DNA of 64,000 bases from Desulfosudaceae bacterium (GTDB taxonomy: Bacteria > Desulfobacterota > Desulfobacteria > Desulfobacterales > Desulfosudaceae), in the NCBI GenBank assembly GCA_963674745.2, contig CAXXDV010000003.1, positions 704,001 to 768,000 of the forward strand, in the 5' to 3' direction. A program made the translations under genes and the position numbers. Shown here in pieces: positions 1 through 32,478 of this stretch. Within the stretch, counting starts at the first letter, position 1. The number at the start of each line of letters is the position of its first letter. The notes under the pieces are model-generated. The model saw only the letters and a program-made list of their open reading frames with translations. It made no database searches and was not told the origin of the DNA.

Positions 1-988
1 GCGCGCCGGGTCCTGTCCGGGCCGGATACCACACCACATAGTTGATTTGAAGAACCGGTTGTCCGTTATAAAAGGCATTGGTGAAATAATAGTACATGGT
101 CGGCCGGTCACCGGCCACGATGATATTATGCTCCTGCCATTTGATGGCACCGATACGGTCGTCATCACCACGGATATCCTGGGTCAGAACCGGCGCGAAG
201 GCTGTGGCCAGCACCTGTTGGGTGTTTTCATTGGGTCGGGGGACGGACAGGGCATTGTTTGATGCTTTGAGTATCATCCGTTTGATCTCCTCGGTCGAAA
301 GATCATAGCGCTGGTCCGGTATATAGGAAATCCAAGTCCCCCCGGGCAAAATGTTGTCAGTTTTCCTGTTGAGCCAGCGCGTCATCCGTTTATGGGCTTT
401 TTTGGTCAGAAAAGCGACCGGCAGGGCGGCCAGGGGATAGACCCCGGCCACACGCATGGTGGTTTTATATTCACTCGGGCATTGGACCGCCTCTGACAAG
501 GATTCATAAAATCCAGGCAGACTTCGATGTGCGGACAGCAGGCTGGCGGCACACGTTTCGGCATGGGTGGATAATGCCGCGATCGTGGGTGATAAACCCG
601 CCCTGTCTGCCAGTTCTTGTCGTGCCTGTTTTGGCAGGCAGGCAATCTCGGTGTATCTGGCCCTGGTGTCCCGGGCTCGCATCCAGTCGACCCATACATC
701 TTTTTCCGCCTGATTGGCAACACGGTTTTTCAGTCCGCATAAAAAACGGTCGGTTCTAAGATACGGAAAACCTTCCAGCCGGAACACGGCGGCATTGTTG
801 ACACCCGCCTCGGCCACTGCTTTATCCAGGTCCATAAGAAAAGCCGCGCTGGCGGCTGTATCATCGCCAGCCGGAAAAACAGAGGGTTTTACACCCGGCG
901 CGCAGGCACTTAAAGACAGTGCGCCTATGATGATAATGAACAGAATTTGAAACCGTTGTTTAAACTGTTTCGTGCTTAAAAATCTCAT
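1..988 (-). CDS. Putative lipoprotein of unknown function, truncated by the left window edge
   Basis: Translated by hand (absent from the ORF track because it has no stop): ATG at 988, MRFLSTKQFKQRFQILFIIIIGALSLSAC-APG (basic N-terminus, hydrophobic core, lipobox LSAC); frame stays open to base 1 (...QINYVVWYPARTGPGA). Confidence 0.75.
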   Translation of the reverse strand, partial: MRFLSTKQFKQRFQILFIIIIGALSLSACAPGVKPSVFPAGDDTAASAAFLMDLDKAVAEAGVNNAAVFRLEGFPYLRTDRFLCGLKNRVANQAEKDVWVDWMRARDTRARYTEIACLPKQARQELADRAGLSPTIAALSTHAETCAASLLSAHRSLPGFYESLSEAVQCPSEYKTTMRVAGVYPLAALPVAFLTKKAHKRMTRWLNRKTDNILPGGTWISYIPDQRYDLSTEEIKRMILKASNNALSVPRPNENTQQVLATAFAPVLTQDIRGDDDRIGAIKWQEHNIIVAGDRPTMYYYFTNAFYNGQPVLQINYVVWYPARTGPGA

Positions 989-1496: not shown

Positions 1497-4400
1497 TTAA
1501 ATTTTAAAATAGGGGCAATCCTTCTGGATACACTCCCTGTTCCTGCCCTGCTGGCGGCACTGAACATCTCCGTCGGCCTTTAATGGCAGGGGCAGGTAGG
1601 TCTCGGATAATTCAGCCGCCGCCTTTAAAGCCGTCCAGACCTCACGCTGACAGCAGCGGGCGGCTTCCGTCCGGTTCAATCGGCTGATAATGGCTTCGGA
1701 AACCTTTTGAATGATCTGGCGGGGGCCGGGTGCGAGCGGGTTGCTTTTTAAAATAATGCCAAAGGCGATACCCACGCCCACGGCCGCGCCGCAGGTACCC
1801 CAGAATCCGCAGGCCCCGCCGGGTACGGCGCGTCCCCGTTCAATGGCGGTAACAATATCCTTTTCGGTCAGGTCGCCCCCCAGGTTTTTGTAAGTCGCGG
1901 TAATTACCCCCGGTACCGCAAAATGGTGCTCGGGACCGTGAACGGAAAAAGCCGGGTGCCGTCTGAGTTGATTGATCAGGTCGATCATGTCCACTAAGTC
2001 GGTATGGGTACAGACATGTTTGACAATATCGACCATGTCGCTGCCATGGCAACTGTCACAGACAAAGTGACCGTCTTCGCAGGCCGCGTTGGCCATGAGT
2101 TTATTCCCGCAGAAAACGCAGGTTTCCTGCCGGTCTTCGGAAAAATAGATCAGTGGCTTACCGCACAGCATGCAATCCCGACTGTGTTTTGGATCATTGT
2201 TCATAAAAAGAGCTGTAACGGGGGCCGGTTTGTCCCCGGCCGATCGACTGTCCTCAGGCGGAACGGAACAGTCACAACTCACAGCACCTTCAGGTGGTAT
2301 GCCACAGCTGCAGGCATTGGCTGCTTCTATGTTGTCGACATTGCCCATGGCATCGAGTTTGAAAATCGCTGAATCACCCTGGGCGTCATAGGGCCAGTTA
2401 ATTTCCGATACCTGTCCCCGCAGCAATAACTCTCCATCGTCGGTTACCACGGCCGCGTAAGGACCGGGATACATGGCCGGGGATTTTTCTTCCGGCATGG
2501 GCCGAAAGGCCGTATAGGTGACCGAATAAAAGTGGTGCCCCAGGACTTCTTTGTAGAAAAAACGTTTGACGATGCGGATATGGCAGAACCCGGCCGATTC
2601 CAGGATGGCGATCAGATGGGGCTGGACCAGGGCGCCGGCAATGCATTCTCCGCGCAGTTTGGCATCATTCTGAATGGCCGGCGGGCAGGGGGTGTCGGTG
2701 ACGACGTCGGAAATGAAGATCCGTCCCCCGGGCGTAAGAACTCGGAATATCTCGGAAAATGTCCGGCGCTTATCTTCGGAAAGGTTGATCACACAGTTGG
2801 ATATGACCACGTCAACCGTTTTGTCGCTTACGGGAAGCTGCTCGAGAAAGCCCTTTTTAAATTCGACGTTCCGGTATCCCAGGTTATCGGCCACTTCATC
2901 CATGGGGCGCCGGGCCAGGGCCAGCATATTGTCCAGCATATCGATGCCTGTCACCGAACCTTTCGGTCCGACCTTGCGGGCGGCAATGTAACATTCGACC
3001 CCGGCGCCCGAACCCAGGTCAACAACTGTTTCACCGGGTTTAATGGCGGCATCCAGCACCGGGCTGCCGCATCCGTATGAGCGGATCCGGGCTGCGGGCG
3101 GGATGTGCGGCATCTCGGCATCGGGATAACAGACCGGGTTGGTGATGTCTGTGTTCTCATCTTCTGCGGCGGTGGAATAAAATTCGCCGACAACCCCGCG
3201 GGTGCCGGAGAAAGTCAGTACGCAGTTGGAATGGGTCAGGGCAACACCTTCCCCTTCCTGAATGCAGTGCAGCAGTTTTTCCCCCATTTTTCGCCGGATC
3301 TGGGGCCAGGGCCGTTCTTCGACAATTTGGGCGGATTGAACCATCAGCCACAATGCCAGACGATTATAGAGCGGTACATAAGGATCATGACCGACATAGG
3401 CACCACCGGCATAATAGCTGTGGTCAATGTCGCCACCGCCGATGATATATTTCAGGGGGTTGGCATTGTAGTTGGTATCGCTCACGATGGATAATTCCCG
3501 AAGGGACGCCAGCGCCGGACTGTTTCGCCAGACGTTTTCCAGGTTTTCGGAAATGTGACCGCAGACCGTGTCTTTGCGGCCGATCAAGGCGGGGGTGGGG
3601 TAAACACTGCCGTTCGGGCCGATGGCCAGCGACTCCCAGCCGGCATTGCCAAGATCGTATCTGGTCCCCGGCGTGGAAAACACCTGGGCTGACAGGTTGG
3701 AGATATTATCGATGGTCACATTGTTTTTTTTCGCCAGGGCATGAGATTGAACCAGGTCGGAAAACAGTGCGTCGGCCGGCACATACGACAGGCCGGATGC
3801 CCGTCCGGTGTTCAGCAGCCACATGTAGTGGACGCTGTTGATGTTGTGCCGTGCGGCCAGTGACACCATGTCCGTCATCTGGTGCCGGTTATCGGGCGTA
3901 ACCGCCATGGAAAGGGTCGTCTGGAGGCCCAGCCCGTCAAGGGCCGTCAGCCCGTTTACGATTTTTGCAAATGATCCCTTGCCTCGCAGGTCGTCGTTGA
4001 CATCTTCAAGTCCGTCCAGGCTGACCTGGAGAAAAAGCCGGTCGGATGGCAGCGACTGTAAAAAGGACCGTTGTTCCGGTAGTAAAATGCCGTTGGTCAG
4101 GATGGCCAGCATGGTATCGGGAAAATCAAACAGAACCAGACGGCATATCTGTTGAAAGTCCGGATGAACAAGGGGCTCTCCACCGGTCAGGTAAAAGACG
4201 CGGGTGCCCAGGCCGTATGCATCAGAAACAACCGTCTTGATCGATTCCAGGGAAAGCGTCGTCTGTGTCTTTGCCGAGCATGAAAACAGGCAATGACGGC
4301 AGGACAGGTTGCATTGATCGGTAATATGCAGCCAGCATTCTTTCAAGTGGTTCAGTTGCAGAGCGCCGGCACGTCCGTCATAATCTTCGATTTCCGGAGA

Positions 4401-4640
4401 CGTCAGCAGGGAAAGAAACTGGGTTACACGCATGATGTCCGCAAAATCGGTTCCGCCGGATGCTTTGGCATGATATCGGCGATCGCCGATAATCGCCATC
4501 TCACCATATTCGATTACATTCTGCAGCAAGCGGTCTCCGGTTGAACTGGGGACCATCCAGTCCGGCGTATCAGGCCGGATAAATACCGGTGTATTATCAA
4601 GTTCAAATCTTACCCAGTCCTCGAAACGGTTTTTCTTCAC
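1497..4640 (-). CDS. Radical SAM / SPASM-like / ArsM-like SAM methyltransferase / DUF5714 fusion protein
   Basis: CNLSCRHC motif, TGGEP, LTNG, VSLDG; ArsM-like motifs YGCGSP, VVDLGSGAG, ISNCVINLS, GECIAGAL; Cys-rich C-terminus CMLCG..CVFCG..GHFVCDSCH..HGPEHH..GACGFWGTCGAA..RCCQR matching DUF5714. GTG start with upstream AGAGGA. Confidence 0.85.
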   Translation of the reverse strand: MKKNRFEDWVRFELDNTPVFIRPDTPDWMVPSSTGDRLLQNVIEYGEMAIIGDRRYHAKASGGTDFADIMRVTQFLSLLTSPEIEDYDGRAGALQLNHLKECWLHITDQCNLSCRHCLFSCSAKTQTTLSLESIKTVVSDAYGLGTRVFYLTGGEPLVHPDFQQICRLVLFDFPDTMLAILTNGILLPEQRSFLQSLPSDRLFLQVSLDGLEDVNDDLRGKGSFAKIVNGLTALDGLGLQTTLSMAVTPDNRHQMTDMVSLAARHNINSVHYMWLLNTGRASGLSYVPADALFSDLVQSHALAKKNNVTIDNISNLSAQVFSTPGTRYDLGNAGWESLAIGPNGSVYPTPALIGRKDTVCGHISENLENVWRNSPALASLRELSIVSDTNYNANPLKYIIGGGDIDHSYYAGGAYVGHDPYVPLYNRLALWLMVQSAQIVEERPWPQIRRKMGEKLLHCIQEGEGVALTHSNCVLTFSGTRGVVGEFYSTAAEDENTDITNPVCYPDAEMPHIPPAARIRSYGCGSPVLDAAIKPGETVVDLGSGAGVECYIAARKVGPKGSVTGIDMLDNMLALARRPMDEVADNLGYRNVEFKKGFLEQLPVSDKTVDVVISNCVINLSEDKRRTFSEIFRVLTPGGRIFISDVVTDTPCPPAIQNDAKLRGECIAGALVQPHLIAILESAGFCHIRIVKRFFYKEVLGHHFYSVTYTAFRPMPEEKSPAMYPGPYAAVVTDDGELLLRGQVSEINWPYDAQGDSAIFKLDAMGNVDNIEAANACSCGIPPEGAVSCDCSVPPEDSRSAGDKPAPVTALFMNNDPKHSRDCMLCGKPLIYFSEDRQETCVFCGNKLMANAACEDGHFVCDSCHGSDMVDIVKHVCTHTDLVDMIDLINQLRRHPAFSVHGPEHHFAVPGVITATYKNLGGDLTEKDIVTAIERGRAVPGGACGFWGTCGAAVGVGIAFGIILKSNPLAPGPRQIIQKVSEAIISRLNRTEAARCCQREVWTALKAAAELSETYLPLPLKADGDVQCRQQGRNRECIQKDCPYFKI

Positions 4641-4664: not shown

Positions 4665-6806
4665 TTATCCGCGTCGCCAGGCCAGGTAGCGTTGGACCAG
4701 GCCAAGGGCCTTTTCCGGCACCCGGGCTTTTTTCCACTCACCGGCCGCGAAACGGTTGGCCTCCGTCAGCGTGGGATAAATATGTATGGTGCCGAGCATT
4801 TTATTTAACCCGATATTGTGCTTCATGGCCAGGACAAATTCGGCGATCAGGTCGTCGGCCTGAGAACCGACGATGGTGACGCCAAGGATTGTATCTTTAC
4901 CCGGCCGGGTCAATACCTTGACAAACCCTCTGGCTTCCGAGTCGGTAATGGCCCGGTCAAGATCGTCAATATGATAACGGGTGATTTCATAGTCGATGTC
5001 GGCCGCTTGGGCTTCGGTTTCATTCAGGCCCACCCGGGCCACTTCCGGATCGGTAAACGTCGCCCATGGAATGACCCGGTAATCGATTTTGAATTTTTTG
5101 ATGCCGCCGAACAAGGCGTTTACAGCCGCGAACCAGGCCTGGTAAGCGGCCACGTGGGTGAACTGAAAGGGGCCGACCACGTCACCGGCGGCGTAAATAT
5201 TGGGCAGGGCGGTCTGCAACCGGTCATTGGTTTTGACGGTGCCGTTGGGATTGACCGCGACACCGATTTCTTCCAGGCCGAAGCCCCGGGTGTTGGCCCG
5301 GCGTCCCACAGCTACCAGCAGGGCGTCGAATTCAATGGTGACATCCCGGTCATCATGAAGGCAGACCAGTATTTTTTTGTCCTGTTCAACCCGGACTTCT
5401 TTGGCCTGGTGACGGGTCAGAACGGTTATGCCTTCTTCAATAAAGGTGTTTTTAATGAAATCCGCGACATCCTTGTCTTCACGGCCCATGATCTGGTGTG
5501 CCATCTCGACCTGTGTGACCCGGGAACCAAGACGCGCAAATGCCTGGCTAAGCTCGCAGCCGATGGGCCCGCCTCCCAGGACGACCAAGCGGTCGGGACG
5601 TTCCTTTAACGACCAGATCGTGTCGGATGTCAGGTAGTCGATCTGATCAAGGCCGGGAATAGGGGGTATCAATGGGCCGGCGCCGGTCGCTACCACGATG
5701 CTCCGGGTGGTGATGATCCTGTCGTTGACTTCGATTTCATAGGGGGAGGTAATCCGGGCCTGCCCGGAGATGCAGTCAACACCCAGATCGGTATACCGTT
5801 CGACGGAATCATGGGGTTCTATTTTTTTGATGATGTCTGTCACCCGCTGCATGACATCGGCAAACTCAAAATCCACCCGCGTCTGACGAAAACCGAATTC
5901 AGAGGCCCGGCGGGCGAAGTTCAGCATTCTGGCACTGCGGATCAGGGCTTTGCTGGGCACGCAACCGGTGTTCAGGCAGTCCCCGCCCATTTTGTCTTTT
6001 TCAATTAATGCCACGCCGGCCTTGACCGTGGCCGCGATATAAGCGGTCACCAGTCCGGCTGAGCCGGCCCCGATAACGACCAGGTTGTAGTCGAACCGGG
6101 ACGGTCGCCGGAAACGTGCCATCGCCCGCCTGTTCTTTACAAAATTCGTAAAGGCCCTGGCAACCCATGGAAACACGCCCAGCAGGGCAAACGAGGCGAT
6201 CAGTGCCGGTGAAAGAATGTCGCCCGGGGATTGGACCCGGGACAGCTGGGTACCGGCATTGATAAACACCAGTGTTCCGGGCAGCATGCCCACCTGGCTG
6301 ACGATATAGAACATGCCGGTCCGGATGGGGGTCAGTCCCATAACGACATTGATCACAAAAAACGGGAATATCGGCACCAGACGGAGGGTGAATAGGTAAA
6401 AGGGACCGTCTTTTTGAATGCCCTCATTGATCTTTTTCAACCGGTCGGCAAAACGGGTCTGGATATAATTTCTTAACAGAAAACGTGCCATCAGGAAGGC
6501 CAGGGTGGCACCGATGGTACTGGCAAAAGAGACAACGATCAGGCCGGTCAGCAGGCCGAACAACGCTCCTCCGGCCAGGGTCATAACAGCTGCTCCGGGA
6601 AGTGACAGGGCGGCCATGATGATGTAGGTGCCGGCATAGACGGCGATGGTCAGCAGGGTATGGTCGGTATAAAAAGCTTCCAGATCGGCCTGTCTGGCCT
6701 TGAGGTTGTCAAAGGTAATATGGTGGTGAAGCCCGGAGGCGAAAAACAGGGTAATCCCCAGGACAATCAGCACAAGCACAAGCAGTTTATAAAATCTACG
6801 GTTCAT
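4665..6806 (-). CDS. VTT/DedA (SNARE-associated) membrane domain fused to a pyridine nucleotide-disulfide oxidoreductase (LpdA/MerA-like)
   Basis: N-terminal hydrophobic domain with LRLVPIFPF..IN; GAGSAG FAD motif, GGDCLNTGCVPSK redox disulfide, GGGPIGCE, AAGDV, HIYPTLTE. No MerA C-terminal Cys-Cys. Confidence 0.9.
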   Translation of the reverse strand: MNRRFYKLLVLVLIVLGITLFFASGLHHHITFDNLKARQADLEAFYTDHTLLTIAVYAGTYIIMAALSLPGAAVMTLAGGALFGLLTGLIVVSFASTIGATLAFLMARFLLRNYIQTRFADRLKKINEGIQKDGPFYLFTLRLVPIFPFFVINVVMGLTPIRTGMFYIVSQVGMLPGTLVFINAGTQLSRVQSPGDILSPALIASFALLGVFPWVARAFTNFVKNRRAMARFRRPSRFDYNLVVIGAGSAGLVTAYIAATVKAGVALIEKDKMGGDCLNTGCVPSKALIRSARMLNFARRASEFGFRQTRVDFEFADVMQRVTDIIKKIEPHDSVERYTDLGVDCISGQARITSPYEIEVNDRIITTRSIVVATGAGPLIPPIPGLDQIDYLTSDTIWSLKERPDRLVVLGGGPIGCELSQAFARLGSRVTQVEMAHQIMGREDKDVADFIKNTFIEEGITVLTRHQAKEVRVEQDKKILVCLHDDRDVTIEFDALLVAVGRRANTRGFGLEEIGVAVNPNGTVKTNDRLQTALPNIYAAGDVVGPFQFTHVAAYQAWFAAVNALFGGIKKFKIDYRVIPWATFTDPEVARVGLNETEAQAADIDYEITRYHIDDLDRAITDSEARGFVKVLTRPGKDTILGVTIVGSQADDLIAEFVLAMKHNIGLNKMLGTIHIYPTLTEANRFAAGEWKKARVPEKALGLVQRYLAWRRG

Positions 6807-10886: not shown

Positions 10887-11249
10887 TTTTCTGCTTTTTC
10901 TTTTGTTGTTCAGCCGATGTCGTTAAAACGACGCTTCTGCCGTTATTTTTGCTTTTAAGTATCGTTAATCCACTGTGTTGTCAATATCCTTTATCGATAA
11001 ATATGGGAGAGAAGATATGGTAATGTTTGACGGAACTGCATGCAGTGGGGTATAATAACAAAAATTGTAAGTATCGGTTGAATATTATTAATCCCGTAAA
11101 ACCACATCTCCCCTCAAAGGATTTTTTCTGGATTGGAGAAAGACGTTTTTGGTTTTAAAGGCAATTCCGGCGGCGATGAATCCGGAATCCGCTGTTCTGG
11201 ATGCTTTCGGCCGGCAATGGTGTGCCGGCAACGGAGAAAATCGAAAATT

Positions 11250-14200
11250 ATGAGATCCCGAGTTTTTGCTATAAGAAACAACCCCTTGCCCTTCCTTTTT
11301 TCATGCTTTATCTGGGTTTCAATATCCCTTTTGATCGGTCAGGCATTTATTGTTCCAGATGCCGGCGCCCAATGCGTTTCGTGCGCCAGGGAACAATCCT
11401 TTGACAATCTTTTTCAAAAGCTCGAGCAGGCGGAATCAATCAGGGTCATTGTCTGGCTGGATGTGGACGGCATAAAAGATCTGACGGCCGCTTCCAATGG
11501 CTTTTCGGTGGTTGCACCGGGCAGATCATTTCCCCAATCCGGAAAAGACGCGGACCGCAGATTGAAAGCGGCCATTGATGGTGTGGCCGATGGGGTCGTC
11601 AACGCCCTGAAGGGAACGGCTTTTAGAGTAAGTTCAAGGTTTTCGACGCTTCCATTGATTGCCATGGAGGTTTCGGCCGACGCTCTGGCGACCCTGGAAA
11701 CACTGCCCCGGGTGGTTAATTGCGTGCCGGATCGACCGGTTAAACTCATCCAGCCCATCGAGGGAAGGGTACCGGCGGGCAAATCCGGCAAGACTGTATC
11801 GGGCAGGGGCGCTGCCGACTTGAGTAAACCGTTTTTAAACAATACCACCGGCATTATCGGGGCGGAAGACGCCTGGGCCATGGGGTACACCGGTTCGGGC
11901 TGGTATGTGGCCGTCCTGGATACCGGGATTCGAAGCTCGCACGCGTTTTTTGCCGGAAAAACCATCGTGGAAAAGTGCTATTCAGCAAACAATGACTGCC
12001 CGGATGGTACCGACGAGGACGAGGGTTCCGGGGCGGCCGCGCATTATGCGTCAAGTTATCAGGGCTATGATCATGGCACCCACGTGACCGGGATCGCCGT
12101 CGGCAACAACGGTACCCTGTTCGGGGTGGCCAAAGATGCCGATATCATTGCCGTTCAGGTGTTCTCCAGATTCCCGGCGACTAGGCCTGAATGCGGCGGC
12201 TCTCCCTGCGTCATGAGTTATGACAGTGATTCGCTCAAGGGGCTTGAATATGTCTACGGGTTACGGTCGACCTACAGTATTGCTTCGGTCAATATGAGCC
12301 TGGGCGGCGGTGCCTATTCAGACTTTTGTGATGATGAAGACGCCGACCGGAAAACGGCCATCGACAACCTGCGCGCGGTGGGCATTGCCACCGTCATTGC
12401 CACCGGCAATGAATACCTTTGCGGCCAGGTCAGTTCCCCGGCCTGTGTTTCAACATGTATATCCGTGGGCGCGTCGAATGATAGTGACGTCCAGGCCTCG
12501 TTCAGCAACTGGCATCCGGTCATGCAGCGGTTTTTTGCGCCCGGTGTGTCGATAAATTCTTCAACCGGCGTTTCGGACACCAGTTATGCGTCATGGGGCG
12601 GCACGTCCATGGCCACGCCCCATGTGGCCGGCGCCTGGGCCATTTTACGCCAGGCCGATCCCGCGGCCTCGGTAACGGATATTTACGATGATCTGACCGC
12701 AACCGGGACCCTGATAACCACCACCTGTGCGGGCGGCGGCAGTGTGCCCCGGATCAACATCGACCGTGCCATTTCCTGTGATCCTAATGCTTTAGCGGTT
12801 GACGCGTTCTTGCCGCAGGCATCGGCGGTCTTGATGCCCGGCAGCCAGGTGACGCTGAATGCCCGGGTGTCCGGTGATTGCGGCGGCCTGGTGGACGGCG
12901 TGACAGTATCGGCCACGTTTTCAAATGGCGATGGTGCAGTACAAATGTATGACGACGGCCTGCATGACGACGGGGCTGCTGACGACGGTCTTTATGGCAA
13001 CTGGTGGATACCGGTTAATGAACAGGACCCGACCACCATTACCTATACCGCTTCAAAAACCGGTTACACTTCAGGTTCGGACCAGGTTGATGTTACGGTG
13101 GTCATGGATTATTGTCCTGCCGGAGCAGGTGACAGTTCATATGAACATATCGCTAACGTGACCTTTGCCGGTATCGATAATGATTCGACCTATTCGGGCG
13201 GGTATGCGGATTATACCGCCGGTACACCGGCAAATGTGACAGCCGGGACAGACGTCAATCTCTCGGTAACCATCAGCCCGGACTCCGGGGATTATTTATC
13301 GGTATTTATCGACTGGAACCGGAACTTAATTTTTGATGATCCGGCTGAAAGATACGACCTGGCGGCTGCGACAGATCAATCCGGTCCGTTTACCACCCTG
13401 GTATCCGTTCCCGAGGACGCGGCCCTGGGTGATACGCGCATGCGGGTTGTGTTGAAATGGGGGGAACGTCCGGATCCGTGTGGCGGTTTTAACTATGGTG
13501 AAGTGGAAGACTATACGGTTAATATCGCCTGTTCTCCGATCATACTGGTAGTTGACGCCCTGTCACCCACGGCCGGTGCGTTTATAGTCCCGGGCGTTGC
13601 CACGCTCCTTCAGGCCGGTTTGGCCGATCAGTGCGGAGACCCGGTCAGCGGTGCGACCGTGGAGGCAACCTTTTCAAACGGCGACAGCCCGGTTCAATTG
13701 TATGACGACGGTCTTCATGATGACGGTGCCGCCGATGACGCTCTTTTCGCCGACTGGTGGACACCGGTTAACGAGCAGGACCCGACCACTATTACATTTA
13801 CGGCCTCAAAAACCGGTTACACATCGGGCACGGACCTGGTCGATGTGGCGGTTGTGTCCGATTATTGCGATGCCGGCGGGCTTGACAGCATAATGGAATA
13901 TATTACCAACGTGACCTTTGCCGGTATTGATAATGATTCTACCCAGGCGGGCGGATATGCGGATTATACGGCCGGTACCCCCGGGAATGTGACGGCCGGG
14001 ACAGACGTCAACCTGTCGGTTACCATCAATCCGGATGCTGATGATAATGTGTCGGTATTTATCGACTGGAACCGGAACCTGGTGTTTGACGATCCCGACG
14101 AGCGATATGACCTGGTGAGCGCGACGGATCAGCCCGGTCCGTTTTCTACGCTGGTGTCGGTTCCTGCGGATGCCGTTTTGGGCGACACGTGTCTGCGGGT

Positions 14201-15113
14201 GGTGTTAACCCGCGACACCACGCCGGTGCCATGCGGAACCTTTGATTATGGCGAGGTCGAAGACTACACCGTTAATGTGGCTTGCAATTCGAGTCTTTTG
14301 TCGGTTGATATAATTTCTCCGTTGCCCTTTGCGACCGTCACCCTGGGAAATCAGGTGACGATTCAGGCGCAGGTTTCAGATCAATGCGGTGTTTTTGTGG
14401 ACGACATTACCGTGGAAACGACCTTTTCCAATGGCGATAATCCGGTATTGTTGTACGACGACGGTCTTCACGGTGACGGTGCCGCCGATGACGGCCTTTA
14501 TGGCAACTGGTGGATACCGGTCAATGAACAGGATCCGACCACGATTACCTGTACGGCCTCAAAAACCGGTTTTGTGTCAGCCACGGACCAGGTCGATGTC
14601 TATTTTATAGTGGTTGCAACCCGATTCCTGCCCTTGATCGGGGGCTGGAACCTGATATCCCTGCCGCTTTCGCCGCTGGACAAGGCCATTGAAACCGTTT
14701 TGTCCTCCATTGCGGGTAAGTATATCAGCGTCTGGTCTTTTTCTTCGGGCGCCTGGAAATTTTATGACCCGGCCAGTCCCGGTTTCAATGATCTGTTCGA
14801 GATGGATGCCGGCATCGGCTACTGGGTCAACATGTCCGAAACTGCGACACTTACACTTCTGGGGACCGTGCCACAGAACAGTATCGCCATTTTAAACGGG
14901 TGGAACCTGGTGGGCTATAATTCCTTCTCGGTTCAGGATCCGGCAACGGCTTTGGCCTCAATCGCGGGCCACTATGTTCTTGTGTGGGCATATGTTAATA
15001 ATGCCTGGCTGATGTACGATCCGGCCAATCCGGGCTTAAACAATCTGCCGACCATGGAATCCGGTTTAGGGTACTGGATAAACGCAAGCGGGGATTGTAC
15101 CTGGACAATGTGA
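11250..15113 (+). CDS. Secreted S8 (subtilisin-family) serine protease with 3 choice-of-anchor-X-like and 2 GEVED domains plus a duplicated C-terminal domain
   Basis: Signal peptide ending DAGA; triad VAVLDTG / HGTHVTG / GTSMATPHVAG; YDDGLHxDGAADD x3; YGEVEDY x2; GWNL...YDP..PG...GYW x2. ORF is open from 11133; ATG 11250 preferred. Confidence 0.9.
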   Translation: MRSRVFAIRNNPLPFLFSCFIWVSISLLIGQAFIVPDAGAQCVSCAREQSFDNLFQKLEQAESIRVIVWLDVDGIKDLTAASNGFSVVAPGRSFPQSGKDADRRLKAAIDGVADGVVNALKGTAFRVSSRFSTLPLIAMEVSADALATLETLPRVVNCVPDRPVKLIQPIEGRVPAGKSGKTVSGRGAADLSKPFLNNTTGIIGAEDAWAMGYTGSGWYVAVLDTGIRSSHAFFAGKTIVEKCYSANNDCPDGTDEDEGSGAAAHYASSYQGYDHGTHVTGIAVGNNGTLFGVAKDADIIAVQVFSRFPATRPECGGSPCVMSYDSDSLKGLEYVYGLRSTYSIASVNMSLGGGAYSDFCDDEDADRKTAIDNLRAVGIATVIATGNEYLCGQVSSPACVSTCISVGASNDSDVQASFSNWHPVMQRFFAPGVSINSSTGVSDTSYASWGGTSMATPHVAGAWAILRQADPAASVTDIYDDLTATGTLITTTCAGGGSVPRINIDRAISCDPNALAVDAFLPQASAVLMPGSQVTLNARVSGDCGGLVDGVTVSATFSNGDGAVQMYDDGLHDDGAADDGLYGNWWIPVNEQDPTTITYTASKTGYTSGSDQVDVTVVMDYCPAGAGDSSYEHIANVTFAGIDNDSTYSGGYADYTAGTPANVTAGTDVNLSVTISPDSGDYLSVFIDWNRNLIFDDPAERYDLAAATDQSGPFTTLVSVPEDAALGDTRMRVVLKWGERPDPCGGFNYGEVEDYTVNIACSPIILVVDALSPTAGAFIVPGVATLLQAGLADQCGDPVSGATVEATFSNGDSPVQLYDDGLHDDGAADDALFADWWTPVNEQDPTTITFTASKTGYTSGTDLVDVAVVSDYCDAGGLDSIMEYITNVTFAGIDNDSTQAGGYADYTAGTPGNVTAGTDVNLSVTINPDADDNVSVFIDWNRNLVFDDPDERYDLVSATDQPGPFSTLVSVPADAVLGDTCLRVVLTRDTTPVPCGTFDYGEVEDYTVNVACNSSLLSVDIISPLPFATVTLGNQVTIQAQVSDQCGVFVDDITVETTFSNGDNPVLLYDDGLHGDGAADDGLYGNWWIPVNEQDPTTITCTASKTGFVSATDQVDVYFIVVATRFLPLIGGWNLISLPLSPLDKAIETVLSSIAGKYISVWSFSSGAWKFYDPASPGFNDLFEMDAGIGYWVNMSETATLTLLGTVPQNSIAILNGWNLVGYNSFSVQDPATALASIAGHYVLVWAYVNNAWLMYDPANPGLNNLPTMESGLGYWINASGDCTWTM

Positions 15114-18100
15114 TGATTAACGGTGATACCCGAAGTGCTTTTTTAATGGGCTGGTATTATATTAATATGCGCCGTTTTTATCTGACCGTTTGACTGGACG
15201 GAAAGACATCCTGTATAATATTAAATATTTTTAAATATTGGTTTTTTATTAAAAAATCACCTTCCCAGGGACAGCGCCAATAATTTAAAATGCATTTTTG
15301 ATCAGTGTTTTGTTTTTTCACTGGCCGTCTGTTTTTTAATTTATTCAGGATGGAAAAACTGATGAAAGAAAAAAACGAAAACCTGAGGCAGACGCAGCCG
15401 GCTTTATTATCGGTTGCCGTGGCCTGGCTGGTGGTCATAATTCTGGCCGGTCAGTTTGCGGCAGTCAGAATGGCAGGTGCGCAATGCACCAATTGTTCAC
15501 GCGAAGCATCTTTTGATCAACTGTTTGAGGAAGCCGCGCAAAAGGGCTCTGTGATGATCATTGTGCGGTTGAACATTGCCAGGCTGCAGGAGTTGACGGC
15601 CGCTTCCAATGCCTACTCCGTGATGCAGCCCGGCAGATCATTCCCTCAATCCGGAAAAGACGCGGATCTTGCCTTGAAAGCCGCCATAGACGGAGTGGCG
15701 GACGCCGTCGTCAACACCTTGAAAGGCACGGCTTTTACTGTGACAAGGCAATTCTCAACCCTGCCCCTGATCGCCATGAGAGTGTCGCCTGATGCCCTGG
15801 CGGTTCTGGAAACGCTGCCCCAGGTGGCCAATTGTGTGCCTGATCGACCCGTCAGGCTTGAGCCCCCGATTGAAGGGCTGTCAACAAGGAGCAAGCCTGA
15901 AGATTTTACATGGGAAAAGGGTGTTCTTGACCTGAACAAACCGCTTTTGAACGATACCACCGGCATCATCGGCGCGGAAGACGCCTGGGCCATGGGGTAT
16001 ACCGGTTCGGGCTGGTATGTGGCGGTGCTGGATTCCGGGATTTTAAACACCCACGAGTTTTTTGCCGGAAAAACCATCGTGGAAAAATGTTATTCCCTGA
16101 GAAGCAACTGCCCCAATGGTACCGACGAGGATGTCGGACCGGGGTCGGCAGCCCATTATTCCTCAATCTATCAGAGTTATGACCATGGAACGCATGTGGC
16201 CGGGATCGCCACCGGCAATAACGGCACCCTGTTCGGGGTGGCCAAAGACGCTGATATCATTGCCGTTCAGGTGTTCTCACGGTTTACGCCCACAGAATGC
16301 TGCGGTGACCCTGACGGTACTCCCTGTGTCATGAGCTATACCAGTGATCAGCTTAAAGGGCTTGAATATGTCTACGGGTTACGGTCAACCTACAGTATTG
16401 CTTCGGTCAACATGAGCCTGGGGGGCGGTGAATATTCGGACTTTTGTGACGATGCACAAGTTGAGCGGAAAGCGGCCATCGACAACCTGCGCGCGGTGGG
16501 TATTGCCACGGTCATTGCCACCGGCAATGACGGCTACTGCGGCGCGGTCAGTGCCCCGGCCTGTATTTCCTCCGCCATATCCGTGGGCGCGTCGTATGAT
16601 AATGACACCGAAGCGCCGTTTAACAACTGGCACCCGGTTCTGCAGCGGTTCTTCGCGCCCGGTGTGTCGATTTATTCTTCAACCGCTGATACCAATACCA
16701 GCTATGAGTACTGGAACGGCACGTCCATGGCCACGCCCCATGTGGCCGGTGCCTGGGCTATTTTACGCCAGGCCGATCCCGCGGCCTCGGTAACGGATAT
16801 TTACGATGACCTGGTGGCGACCGGTACCCCGGTATCAACCGCATGCACTACCGGCGGCAGTGTGCCCAGGATTAATATTGACTCGGCCATTTATTGTGAC
16901 CCCGCTGTATTGCTGATCGATGCCCTTTTACCCGAATCAGCAGCAGGTTTGAAGCCCGGTGTCCAGGCAACACTTAAGGCGCGGGCCTCTAATGATTGTA
17001 ACCGCTATGTTTACGGGGTAGCCGTGGAGGTTATTTTTTCCAATGGTGACAGCCCCATACAATTATATGACGACGGTCTCCATAGTGACGGCGCCGCCTA
17101 TGACGGCATTTTTGGCAACTGGTGGATACCGATAAACGAACAGGACCCGACCACCATTACGTATACGGCGACAAAAACCGGTTATACGTCGGGTATGGAC
17201 CAGGTTGATGTAACCGTTGTTGCCGAGTATTGCGATGCCGGAGGGACTGATGCTGCAGATGTATATATATCCAATGTCACCTTTGCGGGTATCGATAATG
17301 ATTCAATTGAAGTGAGCGGTTATTCGGATTACACCTCGGGTACGGCAGCCAGTGTGTCTCCCGGTACGGATGAAGTTCTGTCTGTTACCATCAGCACGAT
17401 GGGTTATCAATTTTTAACCGTATTTATTGACTGGAATCATAATTTCAGCTTTAACGATGCGGGCGAACGATACGATCTGGCCAGTTCAACAAGTCTACCC
17501 GGCCCCTATACCACTACAATTTCAGTGCCCGCGGACGCTGCACCGGGTGACACACGTATGCGGGTGGTACTGAATTTTATGGCCGGTGCTGAGTCGTGCG
17601 GGATTTTCAAGTTTGGTGAGGTAGAGGACTATACCGTCAGTGTTGTTTGTGATCCCAACATATTGATGGTTGACGCCCTGTCGCCCGATGACGCGGCGAA
17701 TGTTGCTTCCGGCGTCGCTACCCTCCTTCAGGCCGATGTGGCCGATCAGTGCGGTGACCCGGTCAGCGGTGTGACCGTAGAAGCGACTTTTTCCAATGGC
17801 GACAGTGCGGTACCGCTTTACGACGACGGCCTTCATGATGACGGCGTTGCCGATGACGGCCTTTTTGCCGACTGGTGGACGCCGGTCACCGAGCAGGATC
17901 CGACCACCATTACCTTTACGGCTTCAAACACCGGTTACACCTCGGGCACAGACCAGGTTGATGTGGCGGTTGTGTCCGATTATTGCGCTGCCGGCGGGCT
18001 TGATAGCGCTTCCGACTATATCACCAATCTCACGTTTGCCGGAATTGATAATAATTCGACCCAGGCGGGCGGGTATGCGGATTATACGGCGGGTATACCG

Positions 18101-19150
18101 GCAAATGTGGTCAGCGGAACAAATTTAAATCTATGGGTTACCATTTCGCCCGACACCAATGATTACCTGTCGGTTTTTATCGACTGGAACCAGGATATGG
18201 TGTTCGACGATCCGGATGAGCGATATGATCTGGCCGGTCCGACGGATCAGCCCGGTCCGTTTACTTCGTTGATATCCGTTCCCGCTGATGCGGTTTTAGG
18301 CGATACGTGTCTGCGGGTAGTGATGACGCGCGACACCGTATCTTTACCCTGCGGATCATTCGACTACGGTGAAGTGGAAGATTATACCGTCAATGTCGCC
18401 TGTAATACCGGCTTGTTGACGGTTGAGGCGCTTTCCCCGGCGCCGGCGGCCGTTCTCGCCCTGGGAAGTCAAACAATTCTGCAGGCACGGGTCTCAGGTC
18501 AATGCGGCGCGTTAACAGGTGGTGCCGCGGTGGAAACGACTTTTTCCAATGGCGATAGCCCGATTCAGTTGTATGACGACGGCCTGCATGATGACGGCGT
18601 TGCGGATGACGGTATATTCGGCAACTGGTGGATGCCGGTCAACCAGCAGGATCCCACCACCATAACTTATACGGCTTCAGCAACCGGCTATCCGCCGTCC
18701 ACGGACCGGGTCGATGTCACCGTGGGAACGGAGTATTGCAGTGCTGCCGGAGCGGAGTCCACAATTTCTTATATCTCCAATGTCACCTTTGCCGGCATCG
18801 ACAATGATTCGACCCAGGAAGGCGGTTATTCTGATTTCACCGCGGGTACGCCGGCAACTGTTACGCCCGGCACGGATGAAATCCTGTCGGTTACCATCTT
18901 CCCCCGCATATTTGAAAATGTGTCTGTGTTTATCGACTGGAATCAGAATGCGGTTTTTGACGATCCCGGCGAAAGCTATGTCATCGTGGCCGATGCTGGT
19001 GGTGTGGCCGGACCATTTACAGTATTGATCCCGGTGCCCGTGGATGCCCCTGCCGGGGATACCCGGATGCGGGTGATCATGACCCTCATTTTTTCTCCTG
19101 TCCCATGCGGTACATTTATATACGGAGAGGTGGAAGATTACACCGTCCAT
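12773..19150 (+). repeat. Intragenic 753-bp modules (X domain + GEVED) in both protease genes
   Basis: (D/E)YC codons start at 13107 and 13860 in gene 1, and at 17225, 17978 and 18731 in gene 2: exact 753-bp spacing. Confidence 0.85.
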
Positions 19151-19657
19151 GTTAATCCCCTGACCGCGTCGTTGGATCTTTTTGCCGGCTGGAACCTGAT
19201 ATCCCTGCCGCTTTCGCCGCTGGATGGGGCCATTGAAACCGTTTTAAACCCCATAGCCGGAAAATATATCAGTGTCTGGTCGTTTTCTGCGGGTGCCTGG
19301 AAACTTTATGACCCGGCCAGTCCGGGTTTCAGCGATTTGTTTGAGATGGATGCCGGCATTGGATACTGGATCAATATGACTGAAGCGGCAACCCTTGATC
19401 TTACCGGGGTGACGCCGCCGGGATTTATACCTGTATCAAATGGATGGAATTTGGTGGGGTATAATTCTTCCTCAATCCAGGATCCGGCCACGACCATGGC
19501 ATCAATTGCGGGTCAATATGTGTCTGTATGGGCATACATCAACAATGTCTGGCTGATGTACGATCCGGCCAATCCCGGTTTCAGTGATCTGCCGACCATG
19601 GAACCCGGTTTCGGCTACTGGATAAACGCCACATCGAGCTGCACCTGGACGATGTGA
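15350..19657 (+). CDS. Secreted S8 protease paralog with 3 X-like and 3 GEVED domains plus a duplicated C-terminal domain
   Basis: Signal peptide ending MAGA; VAVLDSG / HGTHVAG / GTSMATPHVAG; GEVED x3; long stretches of DNA identity to the upstream gene. Confidence 0.9.
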   Translation: MEKLMKEKNENLRQTQPALLSVAVAWLVVIILAGQFAAVRMAGAQCTNCSREASFDQLFEEAAQKGSVMIIVRLNIARLQELTAASNAYSVMQPGRSFPQSGKDADLALKAAIDGVADAVVNTLKGTAFTVTRQFSTLPLIAMRVSPDALAVLETLPQVANCVPDRPVRLEPPIEGLSTRSKPEDFTWEKGVLDLNKPLLNDTTGIIGAEDAWAMGYTGSGWYVAVLDSGILNTHEFFAGKTIVEKCYSLRSNCPNGTDEDVGPGSAAHYSSIYQSYDHGTHVAGIATGNNGTLFGVAKDADIIAVQVFSRFTPTECCGDPDGTPCVMSYTSDQLKGLEYVYGLRSTYSIASVNMSLGGGEYSDFCDDAQVERKAAIDNLRAVGIATVIATGNDGYCGAVSAPACISSAISVGASYDNDTEAPFNNWHPVLQRFFAPGVSIYSSTADTNTSYEYWNGTSMATPHVAGAWAILRQADPAASVTDIYDDLVATGTPVSTACTTGGSVPRINIDSAIYCDPAVLLIDALLPESAAGLKPGVQATLKARASNDCNRYVYGVAVEVIFSNGDSPIQLYDDGLHSDGAAYDGIFGNWWIPINEQDPTTITYTATKTGYTSGMDQVDVTVVAEYCDAGGTDAADVYISNVTFAGIDNDSIEVSGYSDYTSGTAASVSPGTDEVLSVTISTMGYQFLTVFIDWNHNFSFNDAGERYDLASSTSLPGPYTTTISVPADAAPGDTRMRVVLNFMAGAESCGIFKFGEVEDYTVSVVCDPNILMVDALSPDDAANVASGVATLLQADVADQCGDPVSGVTVEATFSNGDSAVPLYDDGLHDDGVADDGLFADWWTPVTEQDPTTITFTASNTGYTSGTDQVDVAVVSDYCAAGGLDSASDYITNLTFAGIDNNSTQAGGYADYTAGIPANVVSGTNLNLWVTISPDTNDYLSVFIDWNQDMVFDDPDERYDLAGPTDQPGPFTSLISVPADAVLGDTCLRVVMTRDTVSLPCGSFDYGEVEDYTVNVACNTGLLTVEALSPAPAAVLALGSQTILQARVSGQCGALTGGAAVETTFSNGDSPIQLYDDGLHDDGVADDGIFGNWWMPVNQQDPTTITYTASATGYPPSTDRVDVTVGTEYCSAAGAESTISYISNVTFAGIDNDSTQEGGYSDFTAGTPATVTPGTDEILSVTIFPRIFENVSVFIDWNQNAVFDDPGESYVIVADAGGVAGPFTVLIPVPVDAPAGDTRMRVIMTLIFSPVPCGTFIYGEVEDYTVHVNPLTASLDLFAGWNLISLPLSPLDGAIETVLNPIAGKYISVWSFSAGAWKLYDPASPGFSDLFEMDAGIGYWINMTEAATLDLTGVTPPGFIPVSNGWNLVGYNSSSIQDPATTMASIAGQYVSVWAYINNVWLMYDPANPGFSDLPTMEPGFGYWINATSSCTWTM

Positions 19658-23504: not shown

Positions 23505-24257
23505 CTATTTGCGATACAGGATATCCAGGACATTGCGTGTGTACTGCTCGTCGGACTGTCCCTCGACGGCTTCCTGGGGAAAAACCACCAGGGTCCGGAA
23601 ATGTTCGGCAATCCGGTTAAAAAGGGAAACCCGGTCAGCCGGATTAAGTTGATTCCGTCTTAACAGCGCCTGCAGGACAACTCCGGCTTCGTCCGGTGTG
23701 GTCTGCTGGCGCAGGCGGGCCGCCAGATGAGGATAAACACGCAAAGAATTGTACTTGTCGGCCAGGACGCTGTCCAGATCGGGTTCGGGTATCGACTGCT
23801 TCCAGACGACAATGGTATTGGCCGCGAAATCGCCGATCCGTTGAGCGTTTGAAGACAGCAGGCAGGCCGCCCCTCCGACCAGGTATAACCCCGGCAGGCT
23901 GTCCAGAAAACGGAACAGGTTGCGCACCACGATCTGGCTGAACTGCAGGTTCAATCCCTGGGCATCCATCACATAGAGTTGAAAAATGCGTTTACCCACG
24001 GTCTGCCCGTCCCAGAACCATTCGAGAACGATCCGGTACGCGATGGAAATGATAAAGTAGATCAAAATGGACAATGCCACAGCAAAATCGGAGTTCAGGG
24101 CGCCGATGGCCTTGAACAGTCCTTCCAGCATGGTAAAGACCGCTATAACGGAGGCGGCATCGATTACCCAGGCCAGAAACCGGGTCACCGGGCCGGCCAG
24201 ACGCAGCGAAAAATCGATTCCTTCAGGCGTTATAATATTAAGCGTGTTGGTCCGCAT
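23505..24257 (-). CDS. RDD family membrane protein
   Basis: TPEGI..LAG..RFLAWVID, GQTVGKR, RNLFRFLD, QRIGDFAANTIVV. Confidence 0.9.
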   Translation of the reverse strand: MRTNTLNIITPEGIDFSLRLAGPVTRFLAWVIDAASVIAVFTMLEGLFKAIGALNSDFAVALSILIYFIISIAYRIVLEWFWDGQTVGKRIFQLYVMDAQGLNLQFSQIVVRNLFRFLDSLPGLYLVGGAACLLSSNAQRIGDFAANTIVVWKQSIPEPDLDSVLADKYNSLRVYPHLAARLRQQTTPDEAGVVLQALLRRNQLNPADRVSLFNRIAEHFRTLVVFPQEAVEGQSDEQYTRNVLDILYRK

Positions 24258-25245
24258 GTGTTTTCCTGCCCGACTTCCATAGGAAAAGAGTTAACAGTAA
24301 CAATTCGAATACGCCTAATGTAATTTTCAGTTCATAGCTGATAACCGGCTGGTGATATTGTGACAGATAAGACTCGACCAGACCGGCCCAGATCAGTAGC
24401 ACGGCGACACCGGCAATCAATGTTAAGATGTCCCTGGAGACGTCACGGAAACGCTGTCTCACGGACACGGGTTCACCTCGACCGACGAGTGTTCCGGCAA
24501 TCACCAGGCCGGCCTGACCGGCAATGAGAATGGCGGGGATTTCAATCGAACCGTGGGGCAGAAGCCAGCCCGCCAGAAAGCGAAGCTGGCCGTCCATTAT
24601 ATAATCAACAGCGATCGCTCCCAGGATGACGCCGTTATAAAACAGCATGATGATGGTGCCGATACCCCAGGAAATGCCCAGTACCATGATGAAAATAGAG
24701 ACCCGGGTGTTATGGGTCATCAGGTAGGAGGAAAACCGGGCCTTGTGGCCTTTCATGGTGTCCTTGTCCATGCTTTCCTCCATGGCCACACGTTCGGATG
24801 GTGTTTTCTGAAGATGCTCAAACGGTATCAAGACCGGTTTTGCCTGAGTGTCGAGGCCCACCGCCGCGCCGCCGAACACGCAACCGGTGACAGTGATCAG
24901 GGCGCTGATCAGAAATGCCTGTATATGCTTTCGGAAGGTTTGCGGAAAGGTGTTGAAAAACCAGTTCAGCAGAGCGATTTTACGCGGCCGCCGACCGGTT
25001 TCATGTATGTATCCGAATGCCCGGCCGACAAGGGACTCTAAATACTGGCGCAGATTCTTTTCCGATGAAAAGGTTTTGATCCTGGCGGTATCGGCCGAGG
25101 CCCGCTGGTAAAGATAGTGGAACCGCTTGATCTGGCCCAGATCCATGCGAAAAGACGGGTCCTTTTCCAGCTTGTCCAGAAAACCCTCCAGTTCCGTCCA
25201 ATATTCTCTTTCCTCGTTGATGAATCGGGAAATATCGATGATCAA
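24238..25245 (-). CDS. SpoIIM-family (DUF95) membrane protein
   Basis: LMTHNTRVS, NGVILG, LLPHGSIEIPAILIAG, AGLVES. Confidence 0.9.
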   Translation of the reverse strand: MIIDISRFINEEREYWTELEGFLDKLEKDPSFRMDLGQIKRFHYLYQRASADTARIKTFSSEKNLRQYLESLVGRAFGYIHETGRRPRKIALLNWFFNTFPQTFRKHIQAFLISALITVTGCVFGGAAVGLDTQAKPVLIPFEHLQKTPSERVAMEESMDKDTMKGHKARFSSYLMTHNTRVSIFIMVLGISWGIGTIIMLFYNGVILGAIAVDYIMDGQLRFLAGWLLPHGSIEIPAILIAGQAGLVIAGTLVGRGEPVSVRQRFRDVSRDILTLIAGVAVLLIWAGLVESYLSQYHQPVISYELKITLGVFELLLLTLFLWKSGRKTHADQHA

Positions 25246-26627: not shown

Positions 26628-26636
26628 GTCAGCCTG

Positions 26637-27638: not shown

Positions 27639-27649
27639 GGTGCTCCCTC

Positions 27650-31878: not shown

Positions 31879-31895
31879 AATTTTTTGTCAATTTT

Positions 31896-32462: not shown

Positions 32463-32478
32463 ATCGGCAACTCCCTTT

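Follow-up and report, generated by a model that had tools for sequence, protein, structure and literature searches.

Whether arsenite methylation and the formation of a carbon-arsenic bond can be combined in one polypeptide is the question raised by a gene from a Desulfosudaceae bacterium, a relative of sulfate reducers. To our knowledge, known carbon-arsenic bond formation is carried out by two radical S-adenosylmethionine (SAM) enzymes, ArsS and ArsL, each with a separate ArsM. The methyl groups in arsenosugar and arsinothricin synthesis are supplied by ArsM. The ArsS product is DDMAA, which we take to be 5'-deoxy-5'-dimethylarsinoyl-adenosine. ArsS uses a 5'-deoxyadenosyl radical to adenosylate trivalent dimethylarsenic, DMAs(III), to DDMAA in a redox-neutral reaction (PMC13598754), and ArsL, a non-canonical radical SAM enzyme, joins SAM's 3-amino-3-carboxypropyl (ACP) moiety to As(III) (bioRxiv 10.1101/2024.02.01.577332). 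The stretch analyzed, here called the window, comprises 64,000 nucleotides (G000:C3:704001-768000). One of its genes encodes a protein, hereafter the fusion, that joins a radical SAM module, an ArsM-like methyltransferase, and a cysteine-rich DUF5714 domain. The balance of the sequence evidence tips toward the fusion acting as one chain in place of ArsM plus ArsS, as a non-homologous substitute that would methylate As(III) and form a carbon-arsenic bond.

The gene occupies positions 1497..4640 of the window and encodes 1047 amino acids from a GTG start. The initial annotation had described a single open reading frame (ORF) of this length, which was confirmed, and the strand that it omitted is the minus strand. 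The frame is open under translation table 11, and the fusion contains no selenocysteine (Sec). Its N-terminal part carries a domain resembling the recognition element (RRE) of enzymes that modify ribosomally synthesized and post-translationally modified peptides (RiPPs). The parts of the gene are as follows.

1497..4640, minus strand: whole fusion gene, stop codon at 1497-1499 (ORF call and at least 120 full-length homologue clusters)
4401..4640, minus strand: RRE-like N-terminal domain, about residues 1-80, three strands then helices (AlphaFold model, Foldseek)
3858..4325, minus strand: radical SAM core, residues 106-261 in Pfam (PF04055, E 4e-19), with C110/C114/C117 at nucleotides 4290-4313
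3498..3644, minus strand: SPASM-like region without auxiliary-cluster cysteines (sub-threshold PF13186, fold similarity)
2496..3188, minus strand: SAM methyltransferase of ArsM-like type, roughly residues 485-715, containing C504, C524, C616, and C666 (Pfam, NCBIfam, phmmer)
2211..2495, minus strand: ArsM-type C-terminal extension and linker with C777-x-C779, the pair at nucleotides 2304-2312
1500..2210, minus strand: Zn-ribbon-like Cys4 and Cys3His sites, then helical DUF5714 core (Pfam, alignment, model)

Profile searches bear out the domains that had been read from the letters alone. The CxxxCxxC radical SAM domain is recovered by Pfam as Radical_SAM, and its three cysteines are C110, C114, and C117. 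Methyltransf_31 matches residues 533-667 (E 3e-31), and the top NCBIfam match of the whole protein is arsenite methyltransferase NF008823 (residues 493-694, E 2e-69). The DUF5714 assignment stands with a wide margin: PF18978 matches residues 873-1045 over its full profile (1-173 of 173) with E 2e-56 and 190.7 bits, where the cut-off is 26.2.

The fusion is a real and conserved protein for which no published study was found; literature listed under the TIGR and DUF accessions of the families encoded around it yielded nothing on the fusion. At least 120 homologue clusters have the identical full-length architecture, with 44-83% identity and 99-100% coverage, and an architecture shared at this level is far above chance. 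All named homologues are from Desulfobacterota (Desulfobacter, Desulfoluna, Desulfosarcina, Dissulfurirhabdus, and Desulfurivibrio), and the only annotations that they carry are "DUF5714 domain-containing" or "methyltransferase domain-containing". Conservation was assessed in an alignment of 115 full-length fusion homologues. The radical SAM core shows no variation at C110, C114, or C117, nor in the GGEP motif (153-156), which contains the SAM-binding GGE motif (G153-G154-E155). Linker cysteines C459 and C473 and methyltransferase cysteines C524, C550, C616, and C666 are invariant or nearly so, and the C777-x-C779 pair is 99% conserved. The same holds in the Zn-ribbon-type sites (C823/C826/C841/C844 and C854/H858/C861/C864/H865) and in the DUF5714 core (H906, C944, C950, C996, C997, C1028, C1037, and C1042). 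The C-terminal domain had been described as very rich in cysteine and histidine, and its last 240 residues indeed hold 15 invariant cysteines and several invariant histidines.

ArsM enzymes bind As(III) through cysteines, and the methyltransferase domain of the fusion keeps the corresponding residues. When the fusion was searched with phmmer against all Protein Data Bank (PDB) sequences, ArsM structures ranked first (CrArsM 5evj, E 6.5e-38; CmArsM 4fr0/4kw7, about 5e-35, with 5.6e-35 for 4fr0). Three of the four motifs proposed earlier as ArsM-like fall on As(III)-binding columns: C524 (YGCGSP), C616 (SNCVIN), and C666 (GECIAG) align with C72, C174, and C224 of CmArsM (4fr0/4kw7). These three are 99-100% conserved among fusion homologues, and their columns hold cysteine in 60-62 of 62 other ArsM-like proteins. 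The nearest standalone ArsM-like proteins, of about 320 aa, cover fusion residues 485-760, and they share with the fusion an ArsM-like C-terminal extension. The fusion thus resembles ArsM/AS3MT (CmArsM 4fr0/4kw7, CrArsM 5evj) in its class-I SAM methyltransferase fold with the glycine motif for SAM binding, its cysteine triad, and its extension, and it differs in that the methyltransferase sits between two other modules and the gene lies outside any ars resistance operon.

Phylogenetic placement was obtained from a quick IQ-TREE analysis of 88 rows, with support only from the Shimodaira-Hasegawa-like approximate likelihood ratio test (SH-aLRT) and with very long outgroup branches. One clade (SH-aLRT 95) unites 24 fusion methyltransferase domains with eight short or fragmentary rows. 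Sister to this clade are 33 proteins of about 320 aa that stand alone and likewise score just under the NF008823 cut-off, and the next branch is a clade with arsinothricin ArsM as its best model. The initial annotation had named grouping outside the ArsM clade as a refutation. The tree tentatively places the fusion methyltransferase in a broad ArsM-like radiation and not in the canonical equivalog.

The radical SAM module appears to have a different origin from that of ArsS. In the AlphaFold model of residues 1-480, with a predicted local distance difference test (pLDDT) score of 90.5, strands 10-14, 17-21, and 28-31 are followed by helices at 33-77, and the radical SAM barrel comes after this helical bundle. 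With Foldseek, these residues align along their whole length to the RRE-bearing RiPP maturases CteB, SkfB, and SuiB. Matches to CteB 5why/5wgg reach E 4e-17 over 465-479 columns with a query TM score (TMq) of 0.63-0.65 (chain 5why_B: E 1.1e-16, TMq 0.65, 465 columns), and the match to SkfB 6efn has E 2.7e-17. The best NCBIfam radical SAM matches are likewise peptide maturases, namely ScmF, MftC, StsB (spanning residues 9-394), and AlbA. This shared fold suggests that the radical SAM module is a former peptide-maturase scaffold and not ArsS.

Reading the protein as an ArsS fusion was rejected, as TIGR04167 gives 50.1 bits against a cut-off of 300 and matches at model positions 3-151 only. The Pfam matches of the fusion include no ArsS C-terminal Cys/Sec domain. 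The earlier impression by eye that the radical SAM part is unlike ArsS was therefore correct (50 bits against 300). The two share the superfamily core only, and the fusion has an RRE-SPASM-type fold. In the SPASM-like stretch, the Pfam match is weak (PF13186, residues 333-381, E 8e-4, under the cut-off), and C360 is the sole cysteine in residues 330-430, conserved in 82% of homologues. With only this poorly conserved cysteine, the usual SPASM auxiliary clusters cannot be bound there.

RRE-like domains of known enzymes bind peptides. The fusion might accordingly be a peptide or protein maturase whose RRE-like domain recruits a peptide or the protein's own cysteine-rich tail for radical cross-linking or alkylation and thiol methylation, with no arsenic involved. 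The superposition of residues 1-480 on the sactisynthases CteB, SkfB, and SuiB, RRE region included, speaks for this, as do the sequence similarity to StsB and AlbA and the top NCBIfam matches. However, the fusion differs from RRE-bearing SPASM maturases in lacking the SPASM auxiliary-cluster cysteines and in being joined to a metalloid-type methyltransferase. A conserved precursor-peptide gene was not found either: a crude ORF search of 23 loci with full-length fusions recovered no ORF of 25-79 aa conserved within 3 kb, apart from two close-relative pairs. A maturase would also leave the kept ArsM metalloid triad and the ArsS-type cassette described below unexplained, and we regard this explanation as quite improbable.

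DUF5714 is the third module, and its cysteines suggest a metal-binding role. In the model of the last 238 residues (pLDDT 92.2), a β-hairpin zinc-ribbon region precedes a bundle of helices. Foldseek found no convincing solved relative of the DUF5714 model in the PDB (best E 0.5), and the ESM Atlas held no usable match outside PF18978 clusters. In a wide VIA-align comparison, the best scores were Z 5.9 (CyuA 9fsl) and Z 5.4 (split-Soret cytochrome c 1h21), within the stated noise range for helical proteins. Relaxed Pfam searching gave a weak C_GCAxxG_C_C match to the DUF5714 region (E 0.0031; 18 bits, with a cut-off of 27) along with signs of zinc ribbons; these are leads and not membership. 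Most likely DUF5714 binds metal, either as an extra Fe-S or Zn site or by holding the metalloid itself, and it may substitute for the cysteines lost from the SPASM-like part.

These structural neighbors bear on a further explanation, a metallocofactor or Fe-S maturase that would move a methyl group to a cluster-bound atom and then process it by radical chemistry, following NifB-like logic. NifB is among the weaker Foldseek matches of the radical SAM module, and the best sub-threshold neighbors of DUF5714, CyuA and split-Soret cytochrome c, are Fe-S proteins. Yet their Z scores do not rise above the noise of the tool, no cofactor-dependent enzyme is a conserved neighbor in 25 related loci, and the ArsM triad and the complementarity with ArsS would go unexplained. 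This explanation is highly improbable.

The DUF5714 module is widespread outside the fusion. An exhaustive phmmer search found it in 1025 representative clusters (630 at E <= 1e-10), and many standalone proteins of about 230-260 aa are among the 150 module matches listed. Among these relatives are selenoproteins whose Sec lies in an N-terminal Cys-Sec ("CU") arm just ahead of the Zn ribbon, and C777-x-C779 of the fusion lies at the equivalent place. With the model NF045648 of the "metal-binding double selenoprotein" MbdU, the fusion C-terminus reaches 133 bits, far short of the cut-off of 600; the motif of MbdU is given as "CU" in a table of a review (PMC13188914). MbdU and the standalone DUF5714 proteins have the identical Zn-ribbon and DUF5714 module with all its cysteines kept. 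They differ from the fusion in being 230-280 aa long without enzyme domains, and some have Sec in the "CU" arm and at the C-terminus. Two standalone DUF5714 proteins have in-frame TGA codons (L085 1501-2283, plus strand; L086 1501-2292, minus strand). If read as Sec, these would create a Cys-Sec pair in the N-terminal arm, and in one protein also a C-terminal Sec; this pattern would fit the MbdU description.

Gene neighborhood can indicate the pathway in which an enzyme acts. The fusion gene belongs to a minus-strand operon that runs past the left edge of the window in the order DedA-reductase, fusion, 92-aa ORF, 507-aa ORF, TIGR04282, DUF3047, and TIGR04283. The neighbors of the fusion gene are listed here.

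4665..6806, minus strand: upstream gene, DedA/VTT domain joined to a class-I flavin adenine dinucleotide (FAD) pyridine-nucleotide disulfide oxidoreductase, 713 aa
960..1238, minus strand: 92-aa ORF between the fusion and the next gene, gene status doubtful
2..988, minus strand: lipoprotein-like ORF of 507 aa, N-terminal 329 aa in the window (L083 9465-10988)
G000:C3:701254-703459, outside the window, minus strand: TIGR04282 (230 aa), DUF3047 (267 aa), and TIGR04283 (228 aa), locus L083

The reductase and fusion genes are separated by 24 nt. A gap of 258 nt follows the fusion gene, and small gaps or overlaps lie among the transferase genes. Assignments of the transferases exceed their curated cut-offs (TIGR04282, 195.3 bits against 134; TIGR04283, 249.4 bits against 182), as does that of DUF3047 (272 bits). 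NCBIfam labels both TIGR04282 and TIGR04283 "arsenosugar biosynthesis glycosyltransferase". The DedA-reductase has a CLNTGC redox pair and seven hydrophobic segments, and it is predicted to be a membrane-tethered disulfide reductase. MerA identity was rejected for it (TIGR02053, 411.8 against 454.45, with the C-terminal cysteine pair absent). The 92-aa ORF has no Pfam or NCBIfam match and no homologue in 25 related loci, and it may not be a gene. A signal peptide with a lipobox-like motif begins the 507-aa ORF, which has no Pfam match and no homologue in the same loci. Rfam gave no matches at E <= 0.1 in the 18-kb operon region, so no riboswitch was found there. The promoter and terminator scan was of no help, giving 16 promoter-like sites where 8.8 were expected and 19 terminator-like sites where 13.5 were.

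The fusion is not the only arsenic-related methyltransferase of this genome. A canonical ars operon about 640 kb away encodes ArsR, ArsM (307.7 bits to NF008823), a 172-aa ORF, DsbD_2, and an SBF/Acr3-type carrier (L084, G000:C3:55001-70000). With this arsR-arsM-acr3 operon present elsewhere, the fusion is unlikely to be the routine arsenic methylase of the organism. ArsS was not found in the genome, where the best TIGR04167 match is the radical SAM core of the fusion itself. The window also encodes a 357-aa Methyltransf_31 protein (61149-62222, minus strand; NF008823, 37 bits), which is not ArsM by score.

Comparison of related loci and genomes shows how far the cassette context is shared. 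Twenty-five related loci were compared with crude ORF calling, which did not recover the fusion ORF in two of them. A DedA-reductase, or a split DedA and/or reductase, lies within the fetched stretch of 14 loci, TIGR04282/04283 adjoin the fusion in nine (ten including the left flank of its own genome), and DUF3047 occurs in four. A phylum sample of 401 genomes was also screened, with the fusion defined as DUF5714 in an ORF of at least 900 aa, TIGR04283 at E <= 1e-40, and ArsS at E <= 1e-60. DUF5714 was present in 43 genomes, the fusion in 29, TIGR04283 in 199, and ArsS in 143. Among the 14 control genomes, only the cyanobacterium Synechococcus elongatus had TIGR04167, TIGR04282, and TIGR04283 above their cut-offs.

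In the sample of 401, the fusion and ArsS seldom share a genome. TIGR04283 is found in 28 of the 29 fusion carriers, and ArsS in three. Among the 199 genomes with TIGR04283, 135 have ArsS, 28 have the fusion, three have both, and 39 have neither (Fisher's test of fusion against ArsS, p = 1.6e-11, a value that overstates the case because related genomes are not independent). Since the cassette occurs with one or the other, either seems to be accepted as its radical SAM component. What was observed directly is the architecture, the conservation of residues, the setting within the cassette, and the way in which the fusion and ArsS largely exclude each other. These observations suggest that the fusion fills the ArsS slot, and probably that of a dedicated ArsM too, in a cassette of TIGR04282, TIGR04283, DUF3047, DedA, and disulfide reductase.

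Related forms occur in some of the genomes with TIGR04283 but neither the fusion nor ArsS. At least eight of these 39 carry split, truncated, or DUF5714-less relatives. In one split form (G200), the gene for a 761-aa radical SAM/methyltransferase precedes that for a DUF5714 protein of 334 aa, the two overlapping by 4 nt (L093 1681-4967, minus strand), downstream of DedA, DUF2064, and glycosyltransferase family 2 (GT2) genes. In another (G305), two ORFs overlap by 157 nt, either a frameshift or a real split, and adjoin a heavy-metal P-type ATPase (L092 5045-8142, minus strand). In G377 and G325 a contig end truncates the fusion frame, and in G387 the frame is interrupted. Three further genomes (G060, G280, and G018), with TIGR04283 and without ArsS, encode radical SAM/ArsM-like fusions of 615-828 aa that lack DUF5714, listed here without regard to genome order.

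L096 5899-7746, minus strand: DUF5714-less radical SAM/ArsM-like fusion, 615 aa
L098 4676-6571, plus strand: DUF5714-less radical SAM/ArsM-like fusion, 631 aa
L097 6456-8942, minus strand: DUF5714-less radical SAM/ArsM-like fusion, 828 aa

By score, the radical SAM parts of these proteins also fall outside ArsS (67 bits against 300). The split forms and the two other types of radical SAM/ArsM-like fusion show that coupling of the modules has occurred repeatedly. In one genome with ArsS (G269), the gene directly upstream of a fused TIGR04282-TIGR04283 gene encodes a standalone DUF5714 protein of 259 aa (L094 5081-7212, minus strand), an arrangement suggesting that DUF5714 may be an accessory of the cassette whichever radical SAM enzyme is present. 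In another (G314), ArsS shares one co-directional run with zwf, gnd, a fusion of transaldolase and phosphoglucose isomerase, and an FAD disulfide reductase of the PRK06370 type that also occurs beside the DUF5714 fusion (L095 10593-17209, minus strand), and a link to pentose-phosphate metabolism and NADPH supply is possible.

The combination of modules resembles ArsM plus ArsS in several respects. Both bring together an ArsM-type methyltransferase, a radical SAM enzyme, and a cysteine-rich domain, both have the accessory genes TIGR04282, TIGR04283, and DUF3047, and in G314 the neighborhood of ArsS includes an FAD disulfide reductase of the type found near the fusion. In genomes without ArsS, the fusion holds its place. 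The differences are that the fusion is one polypeptide and that its cysteine-rich domain is DUF5714 instead of the Cys/Sec-rich C-terminal domain of ArsS. With ArsL and ArsM of arsinothricin synthesis, as described in the preprint cited above, the fusion would share radical SAM formation of a carbon-arsenic bond together with ArsM methylation; transfer of the ACP group by a non-canonical enzyme sets ArsL apart. No ArsL-type family was among the best 25 of 66 NCBIfam matches, although no comparison aimed at ArsL was made.

A working scheme for the fusion takes its substrate, product, and step order by analogy with ArsS, ArsL, and ArsM. The ArsM-like domain would hold As(III) on C524/C616/C666, with C504 assisting, and methylate it with SAM to trivalent mono- or dimethylarsenic, MAs(III) or DMAs(III). 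The methylated arsenical would then be passed on thiols, possibly those of the C777-x-C779 arm or of DUF5714, to the radical SAM module. There a [4Fe-4S] cluster on C110/C114/C117 would split a second SAM, and a SAM-derived carbon radical would add to arsenic. The CofC-like TIGR04282 and GT2-type TIGR04283 transferases and DUF3047 may process the product, and the membrane-anchored DedA-reductase may re-reduce the cysteine pairs of the fusion and/or aid export. The fusion would in this way probably make carbon-arsenic compounds without oxygen. A more specific version, in which the former peptide-maturase scaffold, stripped of its auxiliary clusters, acts on arsenic held by the protein's own swinging Cys-x-Cys arm or DUF5714 metal site and yields an organo-arsenical other than DDMAA, would amount to radical SAM metalloid chemistry of a new type; it is possible though unlikely.

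Re-reduction also enters an explanation confined to detoxification. ArsM catalysis passes through cysteine pairs in a disulfide cascade that need re-reduction, and a disulfide reductase gene is present in the same operon. The fusion could thus be an arsenite methyltransferase and nothing else, with the radical SAM and DUF5714 modules serving as redox or Fe-S accessories, for example in anaerobic disulfide re-reduction, and with no carbon-arsenic bond formed beyond the methyl group. The weak match of DUF5714 to C_GCAxxG_C_C, a "redox-active protein" family, would suit this role. However, a canonical ArsM is already supplied by the arsR-arsM-acr3 operon of the genome, the SAM-cleaving motif and GGEP are invariant, transferase genes lie downstream in the operon, and the distribution shows that ArsS is replaced, not ArsM. 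We therefore give detoxification as the sole function little credence.

Several observations count against assigning the fusion to arsenic and to the roles of ArsM plus ArsS. The fourth cysteine motif in the initial annotation, NPVCY, does not fall on the ArsM column: C504 lies three residues downstream of the N-terminal "CC" column of ArsM, which we take to be the equivalent of CmArsM C44, and it is present in 83% of homologues. The methyltransferase scores 234 bits to NF008823, under the curated cut-off of 263. Canonical short NF008823 ArsMs, including that of the same genome, branch outside the fusion clade in the tree. The radical SAM module is of the RiPP-maturase type and carries an RRE-like domain. 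Among the 25 related loci, 15 have no transferases in the fetched flanks, Acr3 lies beside the fusion in none, and an ArsR-like gene occurs in one; together with the distance to the canonical ars operon, this scarcity of Acr3 and ArsR leaves no sign tying regulation of the fusion to arsenic. The lack of independence among genomes behind Fisher's test also belongs here. The "arsenosugar" label of TIGR04282 and TIGR04283 is annotation by association, as no literature testing this role was found. A search that left most subscription journals outside its reach found nothing naming DUF5714 and nothing on a radical SAM enzyme fused to ArsM.

Some of these points favor the same chemistry on another element, such as antimony, selenium, tellurium, or a sulfur species, in which case the cassette would not be arsenic-specific in anaerobes. 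The sub-threshold score and separate clade of the methyltransferase and the near absence of arsenic resistance and regulator genes from the 25 loci agree with this, and the neighboring gene encodes DedA with a MerA-like reductase. DUF5714 and ArsS relatives in the phylum are often selenoproteins, and a review places such selenoproteins in heavy-metal and metalloid handling with an undefined role (PMC13188914). Selenocysteine in these relatives, however, concerns the catalyst and not the substrate, and the cysteine triad of the fusion is exactly the As(III)-binding site of solved ArsM structures. Moreover, ArsS, which the fusion replaces, has a demonstrated arsenic substrate (PMC13598754). Another element is an unlikely target on this evidence, and a substitute for ArsM plus ArsS acting on arsenic remains the reading that we prefer.

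The rest of the window contains other gene groups. Two tandem large secreted-type proteins of 1326 and 1450 aa have subtilase S8 and GEVED domains (11133-15113 and 15305-19657, plus strand), and the 1326-aa protein additionally has choice-of-anchor X repeats. A gene run on the minus strand (23505-33249) surrounds a MoxR-type AAA_3 ATPase (26637-27638) and includes SpoIIM-like and RDD-family proteins, together with several ORFs of 250-560 aa that have no Pfam match at a threshold of 1e-20.

If the preferred reading is correct, the fusion would be a third, non-homologous solution to carbon-arsenic bond formation beside ArsS and ArsL, fused to its own methyltransferase and found mostly in anaerobic Desulfobacterota. 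It could also provide a first function for DUF5714 and DUF3047, for the widespread TIGR04282/04283 cassette, and for DedA-reductase fusions, and a peptide-maturase scaffold would have been reused for metalloid chemistry. Should that scaffold act on arsenic as in the more specific version above, the cassette would point to an anaerobic pathway for arsenic lipids or arsenic sugars that is widespread in sediments, given that TIGR04283 is present in about half of the sampled genomes of the phylum (199 of 401). The fusion gives a testable route into the formation of complex organo-arsenicals in anoxic sediments.

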